Positions 1,935 through 11,229 of a stretch of 11,229 nucleotides of DNA are shown one piece after another. The notes under the pieces were generated by a model. It was given only the letters and a program-made list of their open reading frames with translations. It made no database searches and was not told where the DNA came from. Origin of the DNA: a virus. Its lineage: Duplodnaviria > Heunggongvirae > Uroviricota > Caudoviricetes. A program made the position numbers and the translations under genes. The first letter of the stretch is position 1; each line of letters opens with the position of its first letter. The DNA is taken from the IMG/VR virus record IMGVR_UViG_2711768032_000007; one strand, 5' to 3'.

Positions 1935-3098
1935 TCACTCGTCATCTTCTGTTTCGTACTCCACATCAGAAAGCCTGACCTCAAGCTCCAGGGACGTCGT
2001 GAAGCCGCTATTATTCAGAAAATGTGTCACCTTAGTGATTGTCCAGTCCTGCTCGTCTATGACGCGCTTAAAGCCTGACACTTTGACCGGTGTTTCCGTG
2101 TAAATATCTGCACGACCGGTAGCCAGGCTGATGGAGAACTCCGCAACGCCCCGTTGCAGTTTATCCCACTTCGCCTGAGCGGCGCGCATGGCCTGCGCTT
2201 TCGTGGCATATACCGTGGTCAGGGCAAAAACATTGTCAGCCTCACCGGCCATGTATTCACCTTCGCGCGCTTCCGGTACTTTTGGCGCTTTCTTCTGCGT
2301 GACCGGTTTCGCTTTCGGGTGCTCCAGTGCGCGCAGGTGTTTCTCTTTCTTTTTGCGTTTCAGTTTTACCTTCTGCTTTTGTGGCTTCGGGTCTTTGGTA
2401 TGTAACCACTTTGCCGTTACGCCTGTGTAGGCTCCACGGTCAGCAATCGCAAAATGATGACGGTCGCCGTCGCTGCGGGTGATGGTAATCTGCGGGATTT
2501 TTTTACCGCTGGCCGTCACCCCCTGCCCCGCTTTGAGAAACAGCAGTTTTCCCATTTTTACCGACACCTCACCGCCGTTGCGTTCAGCAAGACGGGTCAG
2601 GAATTTCGCATCGGACTCCTGCGACTGGTCGATGTGCGGGATTTTAATTCCGGCCAGTGACGGAGCGACACTGGCTTCCAGCCTGTTACGGGAGGCAATC
2701 GCCTCAACAATCGCACCGAGCGTGGTGTCATGCCAGGAGCCTTCCCGGCGGGAATTGAGCGTGCCACGAAAATCTGCACTCCGGGCGCGGATGGTGACCA
2801 CATCCGGTGCGCCCCGGTGTTCAACCTCATCAACGGTGAATTTCCCCTTGCATACCAGGGCAAAACCTTTCCAGCCGATATACACCGTCAGGACAGCGCC
2901 ACGAACCGGCAGCCCGACCTGCCCGTCGGCATCGTTCAGTTCAATATCAAGCTGGTCAGCCTCAAAGCCCCGGTTATCCGTCAGGGTCATGCTCATCAGA
3001 CGGTCACTGATATTGCCGGTAATATCCCTGCTGTCGAGCATCAGCATGTAATCCGGCGTCAGCGTACTGCCTGCATCAAATGTCAGCGCATCCAGCAT
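1935..3098 (-). CDS. D: P2 gpD-like tail protein (late control gene D protein)
   Basis: 387-aa ORF with the same length and position as P2 gpD (after U, before ogr). Its start overlaps the U stop (TAATG). Confidence 0.9.
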   Translation of the reverse strand: MLDALTFDAGSTLTPDYMLMLDSRDITGNISDRLMSMTLTDNRGFEADQLDIELNDADGQVGLPVRGAVLTVYIGWKGFALVCKGKFTVDEVEHRGAPDVVTIRARSADFRGTLNSRREGSWHDTTLGAIVEAIASRNRLEASVAPSLAGIKIPHIDQSQESDAKFLTRLAERNGGEVSVKMGKLLFLKAGQGVTASGKKIPQITITRSDGDRHHFAIADRGAYTGVTAKWLHTKDPKPQKQKVKLKRKKKEKHLRALEHPKAKPVTQKKAPKVPEAREGEYMAGEADNVFALTTVYATKAQAMRAAQAKWDKLQRGVAEFSISLATGRADIYTETPVKVSGFKRVIDEQDWTITKVTHFLNNSGFTTSLELEVRLSDVEYETEDDE

Positions 3099-3577
3099 TA
3101 TCTCGCCCCCGTCATCCCCGTGAATCTGGTCGCCATACTGCCAGCCTTACCGATGAGCGATTCCGCCTGTTTACCGATATCGCCATAAAGCGCGGCCAGT
3201 GATTCATCAACGCGGGTGAGCGACAGCGTAAAATCAATTTTCCGGGGTGTGCCGTCTGCAAAGAAAATACTCCCTGTTTCACTCACCCTGCTGATGACAT
3301 ACATGCCGTAAATCATGCCGGTGCCATCCAGCAACGGCCACGCCCGGCCTTCCTCTGCCATCAGCCTGAGCGTGGTCATCGTCAGCTTCCCGCCGGTCAG
3401 TTCGGGATAAAGCACGCCGGCAAGCGTCATGTTTTCCTCACCCACACCGAGAAACTGAAAGGCATCCCGTTTACCGATACGGGAATTTGACGGCCAGCGA
3501 TAATCTGATTCGCGCTGCATGGTCTGGTGTGGCAGCGTCTGGCGCATAAAAACAAACATACCTAACGCGAGCATCAT
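3098..3577 (-). CDS. U: P2 gpU-like tail protein
   Basis: 159-aa ORF between T and D, matching P2 gpU in length and position. Stop codon overlaps the D start, suggesting translational coupling. Confidence 0.9.
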   Translation of the reverse strand: MMLALGMFVFMRQTLPHQTMQRESDYRWPSNSRIGKRDAFQFLGVGEENMTLAGVLYPELTGGKLTMTTLRLMAEEGRAWPLLDGTGMIYGMYVISRVSETGSIFFADGTPRKIDFTLSLTRVDESLAALYGDIGKQAESLIGKAGSMATRFTGMTGAR

Positions 3578-3591
3578 TTTTCGTCACCTCC

Positions 3592-6039
3592 TTAACCGTC
3601 ATGCATCATGCTGGCACGGGCGCGCGCACGTTTATCCCGCTCGTATTTTTCGAGCGCATCCTGTAACTGGCGGTCGAGCTGAGTCCCCGGCGCAGTACCG
3701 CCCGTCAGACTGATGTGATATTCGTTTTTACTCTGGTCCACATAAGAGCGGCCAGCCGGTGCCGTAACCGGCTGATAAGCCTGATAGCCTGCATAAGAGC
3801 TGGTCGCCGGAATATAACCACCGGTGCCATACGTGGCGGCATGAGTTCTGGCGGCAGTCTGGTCAAGTGCGTCAGACTCTTTGTTGATAACACCGAGTTT
3901 TTCCAGTACCCAGTCAATACCACTGCGCAGTTTGTTGAACGCACTAAGCGGCAGCATCAACGCGTCAGCCAGTGCCTGCCCGAACATGACGCCCGTGTCA
4001 CGGCAACGATTCAGGGTGTCCTGGGTGGCTTTGACCGGGGCAATCAGGTTTTTAAACCACTGCCACGCGGCCTGTAACTTTTCACCCAGCCAGTCAAACA
4101 CCGGTTTAAGTGGCGTGAACAGTTCCCCCACCGGCGCAAATGCCGCTTTCAGCCCTTCCACCACACCGCCAAAGAATGCGCTGACAGGCTCCCAGTATTT
4201 ACGGATAAGCAACGCCCCGGCGACAATAGCGGCCACCACGGCCACAACCGGCCAGCTAATCGCCCCGATGGCCGTCATAACAGCACTGCCAACCGTCGTG
4301 AAGATTGCCCCCATTGCGCCTGCTGCCGCGATGATGGCATTGATGCCGGTGATAACCGGCCAGGCTACAAGACCAATGGCACCGATGATGCCAGTAAGTG
4401 CCAGCGCGCCACCGGCAATGAGGCCAATGGTTGACGCCAGTGATTTGTTTTTCTGGATCCAGCCGTCGAGTTTTAACACATACTTTGTGGCCGTCTGCGT
4501 GAGCTTACGCAGTGCGCCTTCCTGCTGGTCAAACAGGTCAGTCCCCACCGCCTCATAAGCGGACTGAAACTCCTTAAAGTCACCGCCGAGGTTGTCCTGC
4601 ATGATATTTACCAGCTCTGCGGTCTTCCCGTCTGAGGCTTTAAACGCAGCGGTCAGTTTGTCCAGCTTTCCGGTTGAGGCGGCAGTCATCAGCACAGCGG
4701 CGGCTGAGCTGGCCTCCTCCCCGAAAATGGTTTTCATGTATTCAGCCTGCTGGGCAGTACCGAGCCGGTTTTTCTCAAAACTGGCCTGCATTTCTTTCAG
4801 AATGGTAAATACTGGTCGGGTGTTTCCCTTGCTGTCTGAGGTTTTCACACCAAGCTCTTTCAGTGCATCCCATGCTTTTCCCGTCGGTGCCTGCAGGCGG
4901 CTTAACACGGCACGGCTTCCCGTCCCCGCCATTGAACCGGTAATTTTTGCGTCATGCAGCGCCCCGACCATTGCGGCGGTTTCTTCAATGCTGACACCGG
5001 CATTTTTTGCCACTGGTGCGGCATAGGTCAGCGCATCGCTCATACCGTCAAAATCGGCGGCGGTTTTGTTCATCGTCATGGAGAGAACATCCCCGATATG
5101 AGCGACCTTATCGTTTGAAAGCTGAAAGGCGGATTTCATCCCCATCAGCAGGGCGGCGTTTTCTTCCATCGTGCGGCGGTTCGCCAGCGCCATATTCAGC
5201 GTGACCGGCGTTGCCGCCTGAATGGCATCAACATCCCCACCGGCTTTCGCAATGATAATCTGCGCACCGGCAGCATCATCCGCCGAGGCGGCAGTATTGT
5301 CGCCGAGCTGGCGCGCCTGTTTGCGGAGCGCGGCCATTTCGGCGGAATCTTTTGCCACACCGAGCACAGCCTGCAATTCTGAGTTTTTCTGCGCAAACTC
5401 ATAACCGGGCATCAGCAGCTTAACTCCGGCCATCGTTCCCGCCGCCGCAATCCCCACACCGGCAGCGCCCACTGAGGCCATATTTCCGGCAAGTTCTTTT
5501 CCTGCCTGATAACGCTGTTTGACTGCGTTAAGTTTTGCCTGTTGTGCACTGACACGCGCCAGCGCGTCACGCTGCCGGTTAAGCTGTGCGGTGGTTTCAC
5601 TGATACGGTTTTTCAGCCCCTGCTCATCATGTGCAAGATTGCGGGTATTAATTCCCACAGCGGCCAGTTCCCGCTGCTGGCGTTTAACGGAATCCGTCAG
5701 GCGGTTATATTTCGCCTGTAAGTCCTCCGCCGCACGCTTTGCGGATTCCAGCACTTTCGCCTGAGCACGGGTCGGACGTTCAGTGTTTTTAAACTGTGTG
5801 GCAAGTGCTTCGGCCTCCTGCCGTGCCTTTTCAAGTGCATGACCAGTCACGGCGAGCTGTGCACTGGTCTTGCGAAACCCCTCAATACGGGATGCCTGAC
5901 CGTTCAGCTCGCGCAGTGATTTTTGTGTTTCCCGGATATCCCCCGACAGCGACTTACTCGCTGTGCGGATGGATTTAAACGGGCGGGATGCCTGGTCAAC
6001 AGCCCTGAGCAATACCTGTAATTTTACATTGTTACTCAT
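3592..6039 (-). CDS. T: P2 gpT-like tail tape measure protein
   Basis: 815-aa ORF with coiled-coil-like Ala/Gln-rich N-terminal part and Gly/Ala-rich hydrophobic segments typical of tape measure proteins. Length and position (after E/E', before U) match P2 gpT. Confidence 0.9.
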   Translation of the reverse strand: MSNNVKLQVLLRAVDQASRPFKSIRTASKSLSGDIRETQKSLRELNGQASRIEGFRKTSAQLAVTGHALEKARQEAEALATQFKNTERPTRAQAKVLESAKRAAEDLQAKYNRLTDSVKRQQRELAAVGINTRNLAHDEQGLKNRISETTAQLNRQRDALARVSAQQAKLNAVKQRYQAGKELAGNMASVGAAGVGIAAAGTMAGVKLLMPGYEFAQKNSELQAVLGVAKDSAEMAALRKQARQLGDNTAASADDAAGAQIIIAKAGGDVDAIQAATPVTLNMALANRRTMEENAALLMGMKSAFQLSNDKVAHIGDVLSMTMNKTAADFDGMSDALTYAAPVAKNAGVSIEETAAMVGALHDAKITGSMAGTGSRAVLSRLQAPTGKAWDALKELGVKTSDSKGNTRPVFTILKEMQASFEKNRLGTAQQAEYMKTIFGEEASSAAAVLMTAASTGKLDKLTAAFKASDGKTAELVNIMQDNLGGDFKEFQSAYEAVGTDLFDQQEGALRKLTQTATKYVLKLDGWIQKNKSLASTIGLIAGGALALTGIIGAIGLVAWPVITGINAIIAAAGAMGAIFTTVGSAVMTAIGAISWPVVAVVAAIVAGALLIRKYWEPVSAFFGGVVEGLKAAFAPVGELFTPLKPVFDWLGEKLQAAWQWFKNLIAPVKATQDTLNRCRDTGVMFGQALADALMLPLSAFNKLRSGIDWVLEKLGVINKESDALDQTAARTHAATYGTGGYIPATSSYAGYQAYQPVTAPAGRSYVDQSKNEYHISLTGGTAPGTQLDRQLQDALEKYERDKRARARASMMHDG

Positions 6040-6459
6040 TCGTGTTTCCGCTTCGCCGGAGCGCCTTTTCGCGCCATGTGATGAGTTCGGTCAGGCTCAT
6101 GGGATACAGTTCTGATGGCGGCCAGTGAAATATCACTGCCACATCCGCCATCAGGTCATCGACCGAGAGATTTTTCGGGAACGTCACTGCACCGAGTTCG
6201 GCGACAAAAAACCGACCACCTTACCGGCCAGCGCCACAAGGTCAGGCAGTTCCAGTGCGGCGACCTCCTGCTCGGTCAGCATCGGTGCCGTCATGCGCGG
6301 CAGCACTTTAATCAGTGCATCGACTTCGGAGTTTGCGACCGCAGCCAGACTGACACCGCGCAGCGTCCCGGCATTAGGTTTCATCAGCGTGACCTGTTCG
6401 ATAACCTGCTCACCACGCTTGACCGGATTGTCCAGGGTAATCACATTTTCTTTGTTCAT
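6032..6459 (-). CDS. E+E': Tail assembly chaperone E+E' (product of a programmed -1 ribosomal frameshift)
   Basis: Manual translation: a -1 slip on T_TTT_TTG (6205-6211, minus strand) continues the E reading frame in an open frame to a TAA at 6032-6034. That stop lies just past the T start codon (6037-6039). Same architecture as P2 E/E'. Confidence 0.65.
6184..6459 (-). CDS. E: Tail assembly chaperone gpE (zero-frame product)
   Basis: 91-aa ORF MNKENVITLDNPVKRGEQ...GKVVGFLSPNSVQ. Size and position (between FII and T) match P2 gpE. Contains the slippery heptamer near its 3' end. Confidence 0.85.
   Translation of the reverse strand: MNKENVITLDNPVKRGEQVIEQVTLMKPNAGTLRGVSLAAVANSEVDALIKVLPRMTAPMLTEQEVAALELPDLVALAGKVVGFLSPNSVQ
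6205..6211 (-). promoter_or_regulatory. Slippery heptamer T_TTT_TTG for the E to E' programmed -1 frameshift
   Basis: Plus strand reads CAAAAAA at 6205-6211. On the minus strand, in the E frame, this is GGT TTT TTG encoding G-F-L of ...VVGFLSPNSVQ. Conserved recoding site of P2-like and many other tailed phages. Confidence 0.7.
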
Positions 6460-6515: not shown

Positions 6516-7034
6516 TCACAGGCCGATATTGCGGCGGTGTTGCTCCAGCCGGTCGACGCCGTTCACCTTCTCAATCATGTTGATGGTGTCGATTTCGACC
6601 AGCTCCTTACCGTCCATCGTCAGCCGGAAATAGGTGCAGACCACGGAGATTTTCGACTCGGTGTCTTCTCCCTGTTTGCCCTCGCCGGTGTCGATTTCTT
6701 TCTGACGTCCACGCATGACCACCTCGACGGCCACCGTTTCGCCGGTATCGTCGCGCTGGTAAGAGCCTGCAAAACGAATCGGTACGGCATCCACACCGGT
6801 TGCGGCGTAAAGCTCCCAGATAACCGAATCCGGGAAGCCCCCGAGCGACCACTCCATTGACAGCGCATCGTCATCAAGGCCGAGGTCTACCGGTGCGCTG
6901 CCGTTCATCCCCGCACCGCGATAGTTTTCAAGCTTACGGGTCAGTTTTGGCAGCGTGACGGACTTTGCAACGCCCTGATAGCTGTAGCCGTTCAGAAAGA
7001 CGTTCATTAACTTGAGTTTGCGCGGCATTGCCAT
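6516..7034 (-). CDS. FII: P2 gpFII-like tail tube protein
   Basis: 172-aa ORF directly downstream of the sheath gene with a GGAG ribosome-binding site. Length and position match P2 gpFII. Confidence 0.9.
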   Translation of the reverse strand: MAMPRKLKLMNVFLNGYSYQGVAKSVTLPKLTRKLENYRGAGMNGSAPVDLGLDDDALSMEWSLGGFPDSVIWELYAATGVDAVPIRFAGSYQRDDTGETVAVEVVMRGRQKEIDTGEGKQGEDTESKISVVCTYFRLTMDGKELVEIDTINMIEKVNGVDRLEQHRRNIGL

Positions 7035-7046
7035 CGGTCAGGCTCC

Positions 7047-8237
7047 TTAATTGCTGTTAACCGAAGTGACCAGATTTGCCAGGTATTTATCGGTAATACG
7101 CTGGCGCAGGGTCAGGTTTTCAAGAGGAGGCACCGGTGTATAGTCGTAGTCGATATACAGTTTTCCGGCCTTGAGGGTTTCCGCATCGTTGGATTCTTCG
7201 CTGAACCAGCAGGTCGCATCCACGATATAGCCGTTTGTTTTCAGCTCACGGAATTTGGCATTGATGCCGTCAACGATGTCGCGAATCAGCGTTGCTGTGA
7301 TGGGCTTATCCACCGCCCACATATGCGCCTCAGCCATCGTGTCGGCCAGCACCTGCGCGGTGCGGGTGTAGTTTTCAAAGAGGAACAGCGGGTCATCAGA
7401 GCAGGTACGGTTACCCCAGAATCGGAAACCGTCGCGGCGAATCAGCGTAGTGACGCCTGACTCGTTAAGCAGGTCAGCATCGGTGCCGGACTCCTGCAAA
7501 TCCCAGAATACAGATGCGCTGATGCCGGTAACACCGTTTACCCCGACGTTGGACAGCGTTTTATGCCAGCCCTGCTCCTGGTCGATTTTAGCGCGCAGAC
7601 CCAGCGCACGGGCGGTGGCATACGCGGTGGCGGTGGTGCTGCTGACCGTATCCCATGCGAGGAAATCCGGCCAGATGACCATCAGCTCACGCTGGCTGAA
7701 ATTCTGACGGTAGGCTTTCACCTCGGAAATGGTTTTACAGCCCCATGCGCTGATATACCCGAAAGCGCGCAGCTTCTGACAGACTGATGCCAGTGCAACA
7801 GCCACCTCTTTGGTGTCCAGTCCCGGCACGCCGAGAATACGCGGTTTAACACCGGTTACCGACTCCGCCGCCAGCAGGGCTTTCAGTCCGGTGTACTGAC
7901 CGTTTTCGTCGGTGGTGCCGATGATATTGGAAACGGTCTGCGCGAGTTTCGTTTCCTCGTCGTCGCCGGTGCCGTCTTCCACACGCACGACAACGGTGAC
8001 CGGTTTTGACTGGTCGGCGATGGCCTGCAACGATGCCGCCAGCGTGCCTTTTTTACCAGCCTTTGCAATTGCGCTCTGCACATTGGTAATCAGCACCGGT
8101 TTATTGATGGGGAAGGTTTCCGCATCCGCATCGCTGGCCGTGCAGACCATGCCGACAATGGCCGTGGATACGGTGGAAATGACGCGGGTGCCGTCGTTAA
8201 TCTCCAGCACCTGCACGCCGTGATGATAGTCACTCAT
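7047..8237 (-). CDS. FI: P2 gpFI-like contractile tail sheath protein
   Basis: 396-aa ORF, first gene of the FI-FII-E-T-U-D operon. GGAG ribosome-binding site 8 nt upstream of the ATG. Length and position match P2 gpFI. Confidence 0.9.
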   Translation of the reverse strand: MSDYHHGVQVLEINDGTRVISTVSTAIVGMVCTASDADAETFPINKPVLITNVQSAIAKAGKKGTLAASLQAIADQSKPVTVVVRVEDGTGDDEETKLAQTVSNIIGTTDENGQYTGLKALLAAESVTGVKPRILGVPGLDTKEVAVALASVCQKLRAFGYISAWGCKTISEVKAYRQNFSQRELMVIWPDFLAWDTVSSTTATAYATARALGLRAKIDQEQGWHKTLSNVGVNGVTGISASVFWDLQESGTDADLLNESGVTTLIRRDGFRFWGNRTCSDDPLFLFENYTRTAQVLADTMAEAHMWAVDKPITATLIRDIVDGINAKFRELKTNGYIVDATCWFSEESNDAETLKAGKLYIDYDYTPVPPLENLTLRQRITDKYLANLVTSVNSN

Positions 8238-8268
8238 CCGTTTAACTCCGTGGTTAATGGGTGCAACT

Positions 8269-8315
8269 ATTATCCGTTGGGTAGTACATGAGACGCTATT
8301 TGACCTGGCTGGTCA
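8269..8315 (-). promoter_or_regulatory. Candidate late promoter for the FI operon (-10-like GATAAT, weak -35, upstream dyad TGACC-N5-GGTCA)
   Basis: On the minus strand, GATAAT lies at 8274-8269 with a poor -35, as expected for an activator-dependent promoter. A dyad sits at 8301-8315. A canonical Ogr-type TGT-N12-ACA site was NOT found by eye, so the call is weak. Confidence 0.3.
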
Positions 8316-8330
8316 GTGGATGAAACATCA

Positions 8331-8361
8331 GATAAAGAAAAGGCGGGCAATCTGCCCGCCT
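8331..8361 (-). terminator. Intrinsic terminator (minus strand) separating the accessory island from the FI operon
   Basis: Perfect 9-bp stem AGGCGGGCA / TGCCCGCCT with a 3-nt loop (8341-8361). On the minus strand it is followed by TTTCTTTATC. Confidence 0.5.
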
Positions 8362-8592
8362 GTCCTGATTTGTACACACTCATTTTCCGACTGACAATTT
8401 ACATAGCCAAAATGCTATCAAATCTGACAGCCTGTTTTGAGCGAAGAGGAACCTGAGATTGTGGTATGCTAATTTATGGGGAGCAGGTCAATTGTATTAG
8501 TTATCTTTTTGCCTTTCTTTATCCCATTTCTTTACAGTGGTCTGATACCACTCTTCACGTGTTCGTTATTCCTCTGCTCTGTCACTTGAATT

Positions 8593-9189
8593 TTAGTTGT
8601 CTGTTTTAATTTTTTTGCTTCCCTGGGAAATCGGCCTCCAGTCTTCTCTAATATTTTTCATCTGCTCAGCTATCTGTGTCATTGGACTCCTTGCACCTAA
8701 GTAGCTAACCCCCTCGAAAGAAGCCATATCATAAGAATACTCATTCCGCTCTCTTTCAGTTGAGCCCGGCTGTTTAGACCAGCTAATACTAACAGAATAA
8801 ACTTGATCTTTAATCTGGTCATACTTACAAAGACTGCTGTTGAGGGAATGGCCGTTTTTCAATACGCTAACCTTGCTAAATGGTATACCTTTATTTTTTC
8901 TATGTTCTGCATTAACCAGTGGGGGATTAAATCCGACTTCAATATCATAGGCTGGGGCATTTCCGGTATTAGCAATATTGATATCAAAATAAAAAGCAGC
9001 CCAAGAATTTGGTTCAAGAGTCACAACGACATGAGGTTGAACTGATGCGTCAACCATCCTTTTTGTCTCGTCTGCTAATAGCCTTGTTACTCTCCACAAG
9101 AAAAATGTAGCAACTGCTGTTAGCAATGCTGCCAAAGCGGAGATAAGTGTACTTACTGTGTTTATATGCTCTGCGATAAATTCGATCAT
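8593..9189 (-). CDS. Hypothetical membrane-anchored protein (198 aa; one N-terminal transmembrane helix plus ~160-aa soluble domain), accessory cargo
   Basis: ORF with an AAGGA ribosome-binding site about 7 nt upstream of the ATG. Residues ~11-32 (TVSTLISALAALLTAVATFFLW) form a hydrophobic helix. AT-rich codon usage unlike the flanking tail genes. No family recognised. Confidence 0.6.
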   Translation of the reverse strand: MIEFIAEHINTVSTLISALAALLTAVATFFLWRVTRLLADETKRMVDASVQPHVVVTLEPNSWAAFYFDINIANTGNAPAYDIEVGFNPPLVNAEHRKNKGIPFSKVSVLKNGHSLNSSLCKYDQIKDQVYSVSISWSKQPGSTERERNEYSYDMASFEGVSYLGARSPMTQIAEQMKNIREDWRPISQGSKKIKTDN

Positions 9190-9609
9190 GAGTTGTCCTT
9201 GGGGGCGTACTAATTGTTTTCAATACTAAAATAGCGCCGGGCTTGAAAAATTGCACACTTATGGTTCGATTTACCTCAACAGTTAAGGCTTCAACTTCCC
9301 CCATGCACCTCACCCAGCCCAAGACTGTATGAGGTCTGACAAAGAACTTCCTGACACTTGAAAACGAGGCAACGGCTAGGGTTTCTCGTAGGGCAAGGAT
9401 TGAATACGAAGCCTGTATATTGCTCCGCGAACGCTGCTGAGGGCAGTTTAAATGTTGGGCGTTTATGTAGCCTTTCACTCACCAGCATGAGTTCAATGTC
9501 TGTGAGTTACCGACAACAATATAAAGGGGGTGGCATCATCATATATCCAAGCTAGAGTCAAATCCTCTAACTGGTTTTATGATCAGTGTCAATTGTTTGA
9601 TTATTGAAC

Positions 9610-9638
9610 GTTTACGAAGCAGCACGGGAGCCATATAA
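9610..9638 (+). promoter_or_regulatory. Candidate sigma70 promoter for the DUF3606-like gene (TTTACG-N17-TATAAC)
   Basis: -35-like TTTACG at 9610-9615 and -10-like TATAAC at 9633-9638 with 17-bp spacing. The predicted start lies downstream of the 9642 ATG, which favours the 9681 start codon. Confidence 0.3.
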
Positions 9639-9680
9639 CTAATGGGCAGGTATAAGCCTGTATCACGAGGAATCAGTAAA

Positions 9681-9860
9681 ATGGCTGATGATAAGACCAA
9701 AATCGGTACCCCTGACAATGATTTAATAAGTATCAAACAGGATTACGAGAGACGTGATTGGGCTGAAAAGTTTGGAGTTAGCGAGACCAAACTTGTTCAA
9801 GCCGTACAGGCTGTAGGTCATTCGGCTAAGAAAGTACAGGCATGGCTTAAAGACCATTAA
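9681..9860 (+). CDS. DUF3606-like small protein (59 aa from ATG 9681; alternative 72-aa form from ATG 9642)
   Basis: MADDKTKIGTPDNDLISIKQDYERRDWAEKFGVSETKLVQAVQAVGHSAKKVQAWLKDH fits the DUF3606 pattern as I recall it (N-terminal MADDK..., central EKFGVS, C-terminal AV..VG). AGGA ribosome-binding site at 9668-9671. Confidence 0.65.
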   Translation: MADDKTKIGTPDNDLISIKQDYERRDWAEKFGVSETKLVQAVQAVGHSAKKVQAWLKDH

Positions 9861-9866
9861 TATATG

Positions 9867-9890
9867 AGCGCCTTTCTAGGCGCTTTTTTC
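9867..9890 (+). terminator. Intrinsic terminator after the DUF3606-like gene
   Basis: 7-bp stem AGCGCCT / AGGCGCT with loop TTCT, followed by TTTTTT (9885-9890). Confidence 0.5.
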
Positions 9891-9912
9891 TTTGTCCTTT
9901 GGGGGATGATTT

Positions 9913-10191
9913 ATGGCTAATAATTTATTTATTACTTACGACCTCATTAAAACGAAAGATTATGCGGCTGTGTATGATGCAATTAAATCTTTAGGAAATT
10001 GGGCTTTAACAACTGAATCGAACTGGTATGTTAACTGTAGTTACTCTGCCGAGGATGCAGCCAAAATTGTGAGGGCGGTCATGGATAGTGATGATAAGCT
10101 TATTGTTGTAGACGCAACCAATAACTCAGCTTATTGGTACAATCTCTCAGATGAAGTTAGTAACCAAATTCTGACTGAGTGGAACAAGTAA
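9913..10191 (+). CDS. Hypothetical small protein (92 aa), accessory cargo
   Basis: Strong GGGGGA Shine-Dalgarno motif 6 nt upstream of the ATG. Alternating hydrophobic and polar segments suggest a compact alpha/beta domain. No family recognised. Confidence 0.55.
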   Translation: MANNLFITYDLIKTKDYAAVYDAIKSLGNWALTTESNWYVNCSYSAEDAAKIVRAVMDSDDKLIVVDATNNSAYWYNLSDEVSNQILTEWNK

Positions 10192-10220
10192 TTAAAGGGG
10201 GTGGGTAGCCCCCTTTAATT
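10190..10220. terminator. Long perfect hairpin (12-bp stem) downstream of the 92-aa ORF, probable terminator
   Basis: AATTAAAGGGGG tgggtag CCCCCTTTAATT. The 3' half of the stem carries the U-rich tract. It lies between the convergent 92-aa ORF (plus) and tfa (minus). Confidence 0.5.
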
Positions 10221-10411
10221 CAGAAACTATCATGATTGAAACATTAAATATACTGGGTTAATTCTTTCATCCTTGCTCCCTTGCTATATGTCCTGAAAGC
10301 GTCCTTTTTAGCCTTCTGCTCAGTATGTCCGGTAATGGCACAGAGCGGACTGCCAGATTAGGCTTTACTCTGTGCCATAGATATGTAATCTCACACCAGA
10401 GCTTATACAAC

Positions 10412-10960
10412 TTATTGCGGCATTTCCGGCCATTCAGGATTTGCAGGATCCACACGACTGACCAAAACGCTGTAGCGTTCCCAAGCCTCCAGCCGTGTGC
10501 GCTCCTCCTCTGTTGCCATGTTCAGCCTGACAGCGCGCTCCAGCGGCAAAATCACGGATTCAGCATCTGCAAGAAGTCTGGCTTTCCGATTTTCTGCCTG
10601 CTGCTGCAATTCCTCTGCCGTATAAATGCGTTTAATCACTTTGCCGTCCTTAAACATCCAGTTCCCTGAAATGTCCGCCCGTCGGTTAGCAGTAATATCC
10701 GCCACTTCAACCACACTTAATCCATCCGGTCTGATAGCTGTCACATCCTTTTCCACATAGCGGATGATATTATCTTTGTCGTACGCTATTTTTATCGTGT
10801 CATCAGCAAAATACTTTTGTTCTTCGTACCAGTTCTTACCATCTTCTGTAAAAAACCAGACGACATCAAAGTTCTTTGTCAATTGATATTGTTCAACCGT
10901 TTTTGGATTACCTGCCGTTATATTTATCAAATGCTGCGTATTTTCATGAAAGGAGATCAC
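10412..10960 (-). CDS. G: Tail fibre assembly protein (P2 gpG / Tfa family); 5' end atypical and possibly disrupted
   Basis: C-terminal half (...[28 protein letters not shown]...[42 protein letters not shown]) is typical of Tfa chaperones, and AGNPKT is present near the N-terminus. The ORF has no in-frame ATG near the expected start: ACG sits where the family start Met is expected. The called start is a GTG at 10958-10960 that lies inside an IS-like repeat. Confidence 0.75.
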
Positions 10961-11072
10961 TCAATAACTTCCATCGAGATCGGGTAATAACATTTGAACA
11001 GATCGCTGAATAACATCGATGGAGATCACTTTTGACTCATTTTGTTATTCAGTGATCTCCATCAATGTTATT
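10952..11072. repeat. Cluster of direct and inverted repeats (GGAGATCACT / AATAAC motifs) resembling the multi-repeat terminus of an IS21-family element
   Basis: GGAGATCACTCAATAAC at 10952-10968. AATAACATCGATGGAGATCACT at 11009-11030 and its near-perfect inverse AGTGATCTCCATCAATGTTATT at 11051-11072 (21/22). Six GATC sites between 10955 and 11095. Confidence 0.5.
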
Positions 11073-11127
11073 GGAACTTCACAGGTGTGTTGATCTGTAT
11101 CTTTTGCCATTCCGGTAAAGGATACCT

Positions 11128-11229
11128 ATGCCAACAGTTCCAATTTCTATGAGAAAACTTAAAGAAATTCTTAGGCTTAAATACGGTGTTGGACTCAGCC
11201 ATCGACAAATTGGTCGTAGTCTTGCAATC
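11128..11229 (+). CDS. istA: IS21-family transposase IstA, N-terminal fragment (truncated by window end)
   Basis: MPTVPISMRKLKEILRLKYGVGLSHRQIGRSLAI resembles the conserved N-terminal helix-turn-helix of IS21-family IstA proteins (MRK-I/L-K/R-E-I/V-LRL...GLS.R.IA pattern) as I recall it. AAGGA ribosome-binding site 6 nt upstream. Only 34 codons are in the window. Confidence 0.5.
   Translation, partial: MPTVPISMRKLKEILRLKYGVGLSHRQIGRSLAI

Follow-up and report, generated by a model that had tools for sequence, protein, structure and literature searches.

Sequence comparison makes it near certain that the P2-like prophage analysed here carries an insertion sequence in its tail fibre assembly gene tfa (gene G of P2), and near certain that this element is ISEc12 itself rather than a relative of it. 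The reading that we consider very probable is that a single copy of ISEc12 entered after base 10 of tfa, that the tail fibre gene H lies beyond the element, and that G is silenced and the prophage non-infectious. All positions given below are those of the window, by which we mean the whole stretch of 11,229 nucleotides that was analysed (IMG/VR record IMGVR_UViG_2711768032_000007).

The last part of the window (10935-11229, +), which ends at the contig end, is identical at 295 of 295 nt to the left end of ISEc12 in nucleotide comparison, and it differs by 0 mismatches from the ISEc12 copy extracted from one reference locus (L004). The name follows the reference copies, which carry it as "IS21-like element ISEc12" in RefSeq annotation (NCBI's PGAP pipeline). 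In the search of complete genomes, this segment matched 2169 E. coli records, 1905 of them over at least 80% of the query, with a median of 3 places per E. coli genome among the genomes that had any match, and the matching copies lie on both chromosomes and plasmids beside unrelated genes. Full copies are 2581 bp long and consist of istA followed by istB; the reference copies encode a full-length IstA in which rve and Mu-transposase C-terminal domains are recognised, and an istB product with an IstB_IS21 domain (E=2.4e-67). What the window shows of istA is its first 34 codons (MPTVPISMRKLKEILRLKYGVGLSHRQIGRSLAI; 11128-11229, +, with the ATG at 11128-11130), which are identical to annotated IstA, run up to the contig end and are oriented away from tfa; the full copies are identical over the part that they share with the window. 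The left end reads TGCGTATTTTCATGAAAGGAGATC and is followed by three further 23-bp repeats in the window, the right end of the full copies reads ...GATCTCCTTCACGGTAATACGCA and has matching repeats, and the element thus has the 5'-TG...CA-3' ends of its family. In its terminus, its four phased terminal repeats, its leader hairpins and its first 34 istA codons, the visible part is indistinguishable from ISEc12, so that the insertion site alone is new. The initial annotation had proposed an IS-like element with the start of an istA gene and had assigned it to the IS21 family; both proposals are borne out by the perfect match and the identical istA codons, and a match to a named IS, the lack of which it had listed as contrary evidence, was found. 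It had also placed the start of the element at 10947 or 10960. There the element is real but its boundary was misplaced, since alignment of the window with three independent insertions and an uninterrupted prophage puts the terminus at 10935 (TGCGTATTTT...).

The remainder of the window, according to open reading frame listing and profile searches, is a P2-type tail module on the minus strand joined to the host chromosome at its left end. Chromosomal trhP/yegQ (1-1362) is followed by a full-length gene for the CyaR (CyaR/RyeE) sRNA (1445-1530, +; Rfam, 100.7 bits), which sits between trhP and the prophage gene ogr (about 1635-1850, −, called as a 72-aa product), and the right attachment site of the prophage therefore abuts the 3' end of cyaR. 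The K-12 strain of E. coli presumably has a P2 remnant (ogrK) at this same cyaR/trhP locus. Beyond ogr, and also on the minus strand, follow D (1935-3098), U (3098-3577), the tape measure gene T (3592-6039), E and E' (6032-6459), the tube gene FII (6516-7034), the sheath gene FI (7047-8237), three small genes at the Z/fun position (8593-10191) and the tail fibre assembly gene (Pfam Caudo_TAP; 10412-10960 as an open reading frame). On the near side of the IS, every prophage gene in view is full length. The Z/fun position of P2 is a known cargo hotspot, and the trio of small genes found there, within 8238-10411, also occurs in E. coli S40; the three encode a 198-aa protein whose N-terminus is hydrophobic (phrog_11802), a DUF3606 protein (phrog_10779) and a 92-aa protein (phrog_1090). 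When a defence-system function was sought for these three cargo genes, no PADLOC, Pfam (except DUF3606) or NCBIfam match was obtained.

The same prophage is found uninterrupted in E. coli S40 (NZ_CP010235), at the same cyaR/trhP locus, with 99.5% identity over 3638 nt and no gaps, and at least 8 further genomes match the tfa region at 99.7% or more. In S40, the order of genes is sheath, 198-aa gene, DUF3606 gene, 92-aa gene, tfa (175 aa), H (736 aa), I and J, and both gene order and sequence match the window up to the H-G junction, which is plain in S40 but occupied by the IS in the window. The G genes of P2 and fiAA91-ss are more distant, at about 95% identity to the tfa of the window, and compared with the H-G-Z/fun-FI module of P2, the window differs both in the IS at the H-G junction and in having three other small genes at the Z/fun position. 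The open reading frame assigned to tfa matches Caudo_TAP (PF02413) with E=1.8e-34 and the tail fiber assembly family phrog_136 with E=1.9e-78, where model positions 2-177 of 178 align with residues 8-182. Its residues 9-182 are 100% identical to residues 2-175 of S40 Tfa. Prophage-derived sequence thus accounts for 10412-10934 (−), which runs from native base 6 of tfa to its stop codon.

On the coding strand, the native junction in S40 reads ...GCAGGTATAATTT ATG CAG CAT TTG ATA..., with the stop codon of H (TAA) three bases ahead of the start of G. The coding strand of the window reads ...GTG ATC TCC TTT CAT GAA AAT ACG CA/G CAT TTG ATA..., where everything to the left of the slash is ISEc12, and comparison with S40 puts the point of entry after base 10 of tfa. 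The start codon and ribosome-binding site that G has directly downstream of H in S40 are therefore missing here and are replaced by the end of the IS, which contributes an in-frame 5' extension (10935-10960, −) to a hybrid reading frame of 182 aa. Native sequence stops at the IS terminus with AATGC (10930-10934), which is the predicted target duplication and whose right copy would lie outside the window. The ACG codon at the position of the initiator methionine has a simple origin: the IS ends in ...ACGCA, and next to the duplicated target GCATT this looks like the native ATGCA-GCATT. Since ACGCA differs at one position only from the displaced ATGCA, BLAST alignments ran on past the true boundary, and matches to phages of the P2 family and to prophages of E. 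coli appeared to end at about 10937-10940. A preference of ISEc12 for targets that resemble its own end was considered and rejected, because none of four other targets that were checked looks like the end of the IS, and we treat the likeness seen here as due to chance. As initially proposed, then, the tail module is interrupted at G with loss of the canonical start, and the region differs from a native H-G junction as read in S40; the interruption lies exactly at the start of tfa.

How the ACG codon and the reading frame around it are interpreted determines whether any Tfa could still be made. The initial annotation had noted ACG where the family has its methionine, which is upheld by the PHROG alignment and by S40 Tfa, and had implicitly treated it as a mutated start codon. 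An independent point mutation from ATG to ACG, with the IS further upstream at about 10947-10960, would indeed account for ACG CAG CAT TTG in the window against ATG CAG CAT TTG in relatives, but 10935-10940 (TGCGTA) is present, identically and in unrelated contexts, at the end of every ISEc12 copy, so the ACG is IS sequence, the alignments refute a separate mutation, and we regard it as extremely improbable. The GTG at 10960-10958 was likewise described as the only in-frame start. This holds upstream of the native N-terminus, but further in-frame starts lie downstream, namely native codon 4 (TTG, 10929-10927) and internal ATGs. If read-through from the late promoter crossed the element and translation began at the GTG or at this TTG, tfa could still be functional and the phage viable; the frame is open from the GTG for 182 aa, residues 2-175 are unchanged, and the visible end of the IS showed no intrinsic terminator. 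We nevertheless consider this unlikely, since the native Shine-Dalgarno sequence and ATG have been displaced, the GTG is preceded at 7 nt by a weak GGAAG, and Rho-dependent polarity would probably act on 2.6 kb of untranslated antisense IS RNA. A scan of both strands over 10350-11229 revealed no sigma-70-like promoter and no terminator, and an outward promoter at the left end of the IS, which would offer another source of transcript, was rejected for want of a consensus match. We also hold it to be unlikely that the IS end rebuilds a usable start, with the GTG and seven IS residues giving an extended Tfa by read-through and hence infectious, fibre-bearing particles, or, in a second and weaker reading, that the GATC phase of the element makes its transposition Dam-sensitive.

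A comparable question arises on the far side of the element, where the tail fibre gene H would be expected. The exact 182-aa hybrid reading frame is on record from one contig, CXWQ01000014.1 (GCA_001269145.1, 113,618 bp), which ends 2 nt (TC) after the end of the window at 11229, so that the break lies inside the IS. The window stops there because short-read assembly broke the contig in a multi-copy repeat. It is thus true, as the initial annotation had it, that no tail fibre gene is present in the window, but this is uninformative with a contig end 2 nt beyond, and the stronger statement that H is absent cannot be concluded from it. All 10 of the 10 full ISEc12 copies sampled are simple insertions of 2581 bp flanked by matching target duplications, which are 5 bp long in eight of them and 6 bp and 8 bp long in one each, and therefore H is most likely intact beyond the 2581-bp element, some 2.6 kb away and on another contig. 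The two longer duplications belong to copies L008 (8 bp, GGTCATGG) and L012 (6 bp, GCCAGC); elements of the IS21 family are flanked by duplications of 4-8 bp. If this is how the element inserted here, then its predicted right junction would read ...CACGGTAATACGCA at the right end of ISEc12 and continue with AATGC TGCATAAATTATACC into an intact H; variants of the flank would have AATGC and then TGCATAAATTA..., or AAATGC or TCAAATGC, and then TGCATAAATTATACCTGCGCCACG with the complete H. An exact scan of species-representative genomes for the predicted right junction gave 0 hits, and since the actual left junction, scanned as a control, also gave 0, this negative says nothing about H. The junction is shared by none of 5426 complete E. 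coli genomes, and the insertion therefore looks strain-specific.

Two further explanations bear on this far side. An IS-mediated deletion or rearrangement, through recombination or intramolecular transposition, could have removed or moved H and perhaps the rest of the prophage. Window and contig both stop inside the IS, so that what lies beyond is out of view, and the median of three ISEc12 places per matching E. coli genome offers substrates for recombination. The matching target duplications around every one of the sampled full copies argue against it, as do the position of the junction exactly at the IS terminus, with native sequence right up to it, and the full length of the near-side prophage genes, and we judge such an event improbable, to about the same degree as a functional tfa. 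An assembly artefact, in which reads of the prophage and of the IS, though apart in the genome, were joined at a chimeric contig end, is very unlikely. The junction does lie less than 300 nt from the contig end in a short-read draft and does occur in no complete E. coli genome, but prophage sequence gives way to the IS precisely at the first base of the element, as it would after transposition and not after a mis-join at shared sequence; prophage and IS have only 3 nt (TGC) in common at the junction, and the contig is reported for two samples.

If a single simple insertion is the correct reading, then the course of events would be as follows. In the E. coli strain of this draft genome, one copy of ISEc12 would have moved into the P2-like prophage integrated next to cyaR/trhP(yegQ), and the remaining prophage genes, H, I, J and those that follow, would now lie on another contig, behind the right end of the IS. 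G is normally the last gene of the P2 late transcript V-W-J-I-H-G. With the insertion, 2.6 kb of IS sequence, antisense and untranslated, would stand between G on one side and its ATG, its Shine-Dalgarno sequence and the H-G late transcript on the other, and little or no Tfa would be made, so that tail fibres would fail to assemble and no infectious particles would result. In P2, gpG is required for tail fibre assembly (PMC9594776); given this requirement and the loss of the start of G, fibreless, non-infectious particles would be expected. We think it likely, if with less assurance than the insertion itself, that the prophage would yield such particles with its other tail genes intact, and the original suggestion that it is "probably defective for virion production" appears a reasonable inference.

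The end of the element that is visible in the window also allows its own architecture to be described. Six GATC sites lie within 193 nt (10935-11127), at 10955, 10978, 11001, 11024, 11054 and 11092, whereas the density elsewhere in the window is 1.37 per kb. Sites one to four follow one another at exactly 23 bp, one in each of four direct terminal repeats in a 23-bp register (10935-11030, +), and the fifth falls in an inverted copy of the fourth repeat. The GATC-rich repeat cluster reported initially is therefore real and beyond chance, and it consists of the four 23-bp terminal repeats of ISEc12 and one inverted copy. The ends of IS21-family elements are built of multiple repeats, L1/L2 and R1/R2 (PMC10122671), and the four direct repeats are units of this kind, of the IstA-binding type, that belong to the left terminal inverted repeat. 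We compared phased GATC in six related IS21-family elements, with element boundaries that are approximate, the inverted-repeat finder having chosen inner repeats for some. Roughly 23-bp phasing was seen in IS408 of Burkholderia and in two E. coli plasmid elements of the family, and not in ISAs29 of Aeromonas, ISPsy14 of Pseudomonas or an IS21-family element of P. aeruginosa; the phase is exact in ISEc12 (10935-11095), and the left ends compared with it included L013, L016 and L017. Burkholderia is, to our knowledge, a genus without Dam. The idea that the GATC phase confers Dam-methylation sensitivity on transposition is unsupported, since IS408 is phased and ISAs29 is not and there is no correlation with host Dam, and GATC seems instead to be part of the binding repeat in some IS21 lineages and not a Dam-linked adaptation. 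An invertible tail fibre segment of the Gin/Cin/Pin type was rejected as an account of the repeats, all of which lie inside sequence 100% identical to ISEc12, beside a reading frame that is istA and not a serine invertase, and an uninterrupted relative has a plain H-G junction.

Between the repeats and istA, the leader of the gene (11000-11125, +) contains two strong hairpins, the second of which buries the istA Shine-Dalgarno sequence, and both are shared by all copies of ISEc12. The first is formed by a 22-bp inverted repeat, 95% complementary, made of the fourth terminal repeat and its inverted copy (11009-11072, +). In the second (11097-11125, +), assigned from fold and sequence, the 3' arm holds the Shine-Dalgarno sequence AGGA at 11119-11122. 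The predicted RNA fold of 11000-11135 has a free energy of -51.2 kcal/mol (z = -6.4). It is plausible that these hairpins guard istA against activation by read-in transcription.

Other insertions of ISEc12 place the present one in context. In E. coli ST131 clade C, the element is reported to split tssM with a 5-bp duplication (PMC10711316), which is likewise a simple insertion of the same element that inactivates a gene of a contractile-tail-like machine. The tssM insertion lies in mid-gene and is fixed in a large clone, whereas the insertion described here deprives its target of no more than the first codons and the translation signals and is apparently private to one strain. Another parallel is found in E. 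coli 23AR1183 (L006, 4076-9238), GTEN_24 and 23CRST046, where ISEc12 has independently entered gene H of a different P2-like prophage and both halves of H are kept; it is a simple insertion with the duplication ATATA. The IS is the same and points the same way with respect to tfa as it does in the window, but the tfa of that prophage is about 84% identical to ours, and the insertion lies within H at about 500 bp from tfa.

The insertion of ISEc12 into this prophage is an ordinary event of a kind already known. IS-disrupted prophages are commonplace and inactivation of genes by ISEc12 is already documented, so that what is new is the insertion site only, and the result has little import beyond annotation. 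For the draft genome, it means that tfa should be annotated as IS-disrupted rather than as a 182-aa protein with a GTG start, and that the missing H is an effect of the contig break and no evidence of deletion. It also holds two cautions for scans of this type, in which a window that ends in a multi-copy IS hides what lies beyond and the terminal bases of an IS may imitate a mutated start codon. For the biology of these bacteria and their phages, it adds a further case in which ISEc12 disables part of a contractile-tail machine, as with tssM in ST131, and a further case of prophage decay through IS insertion.
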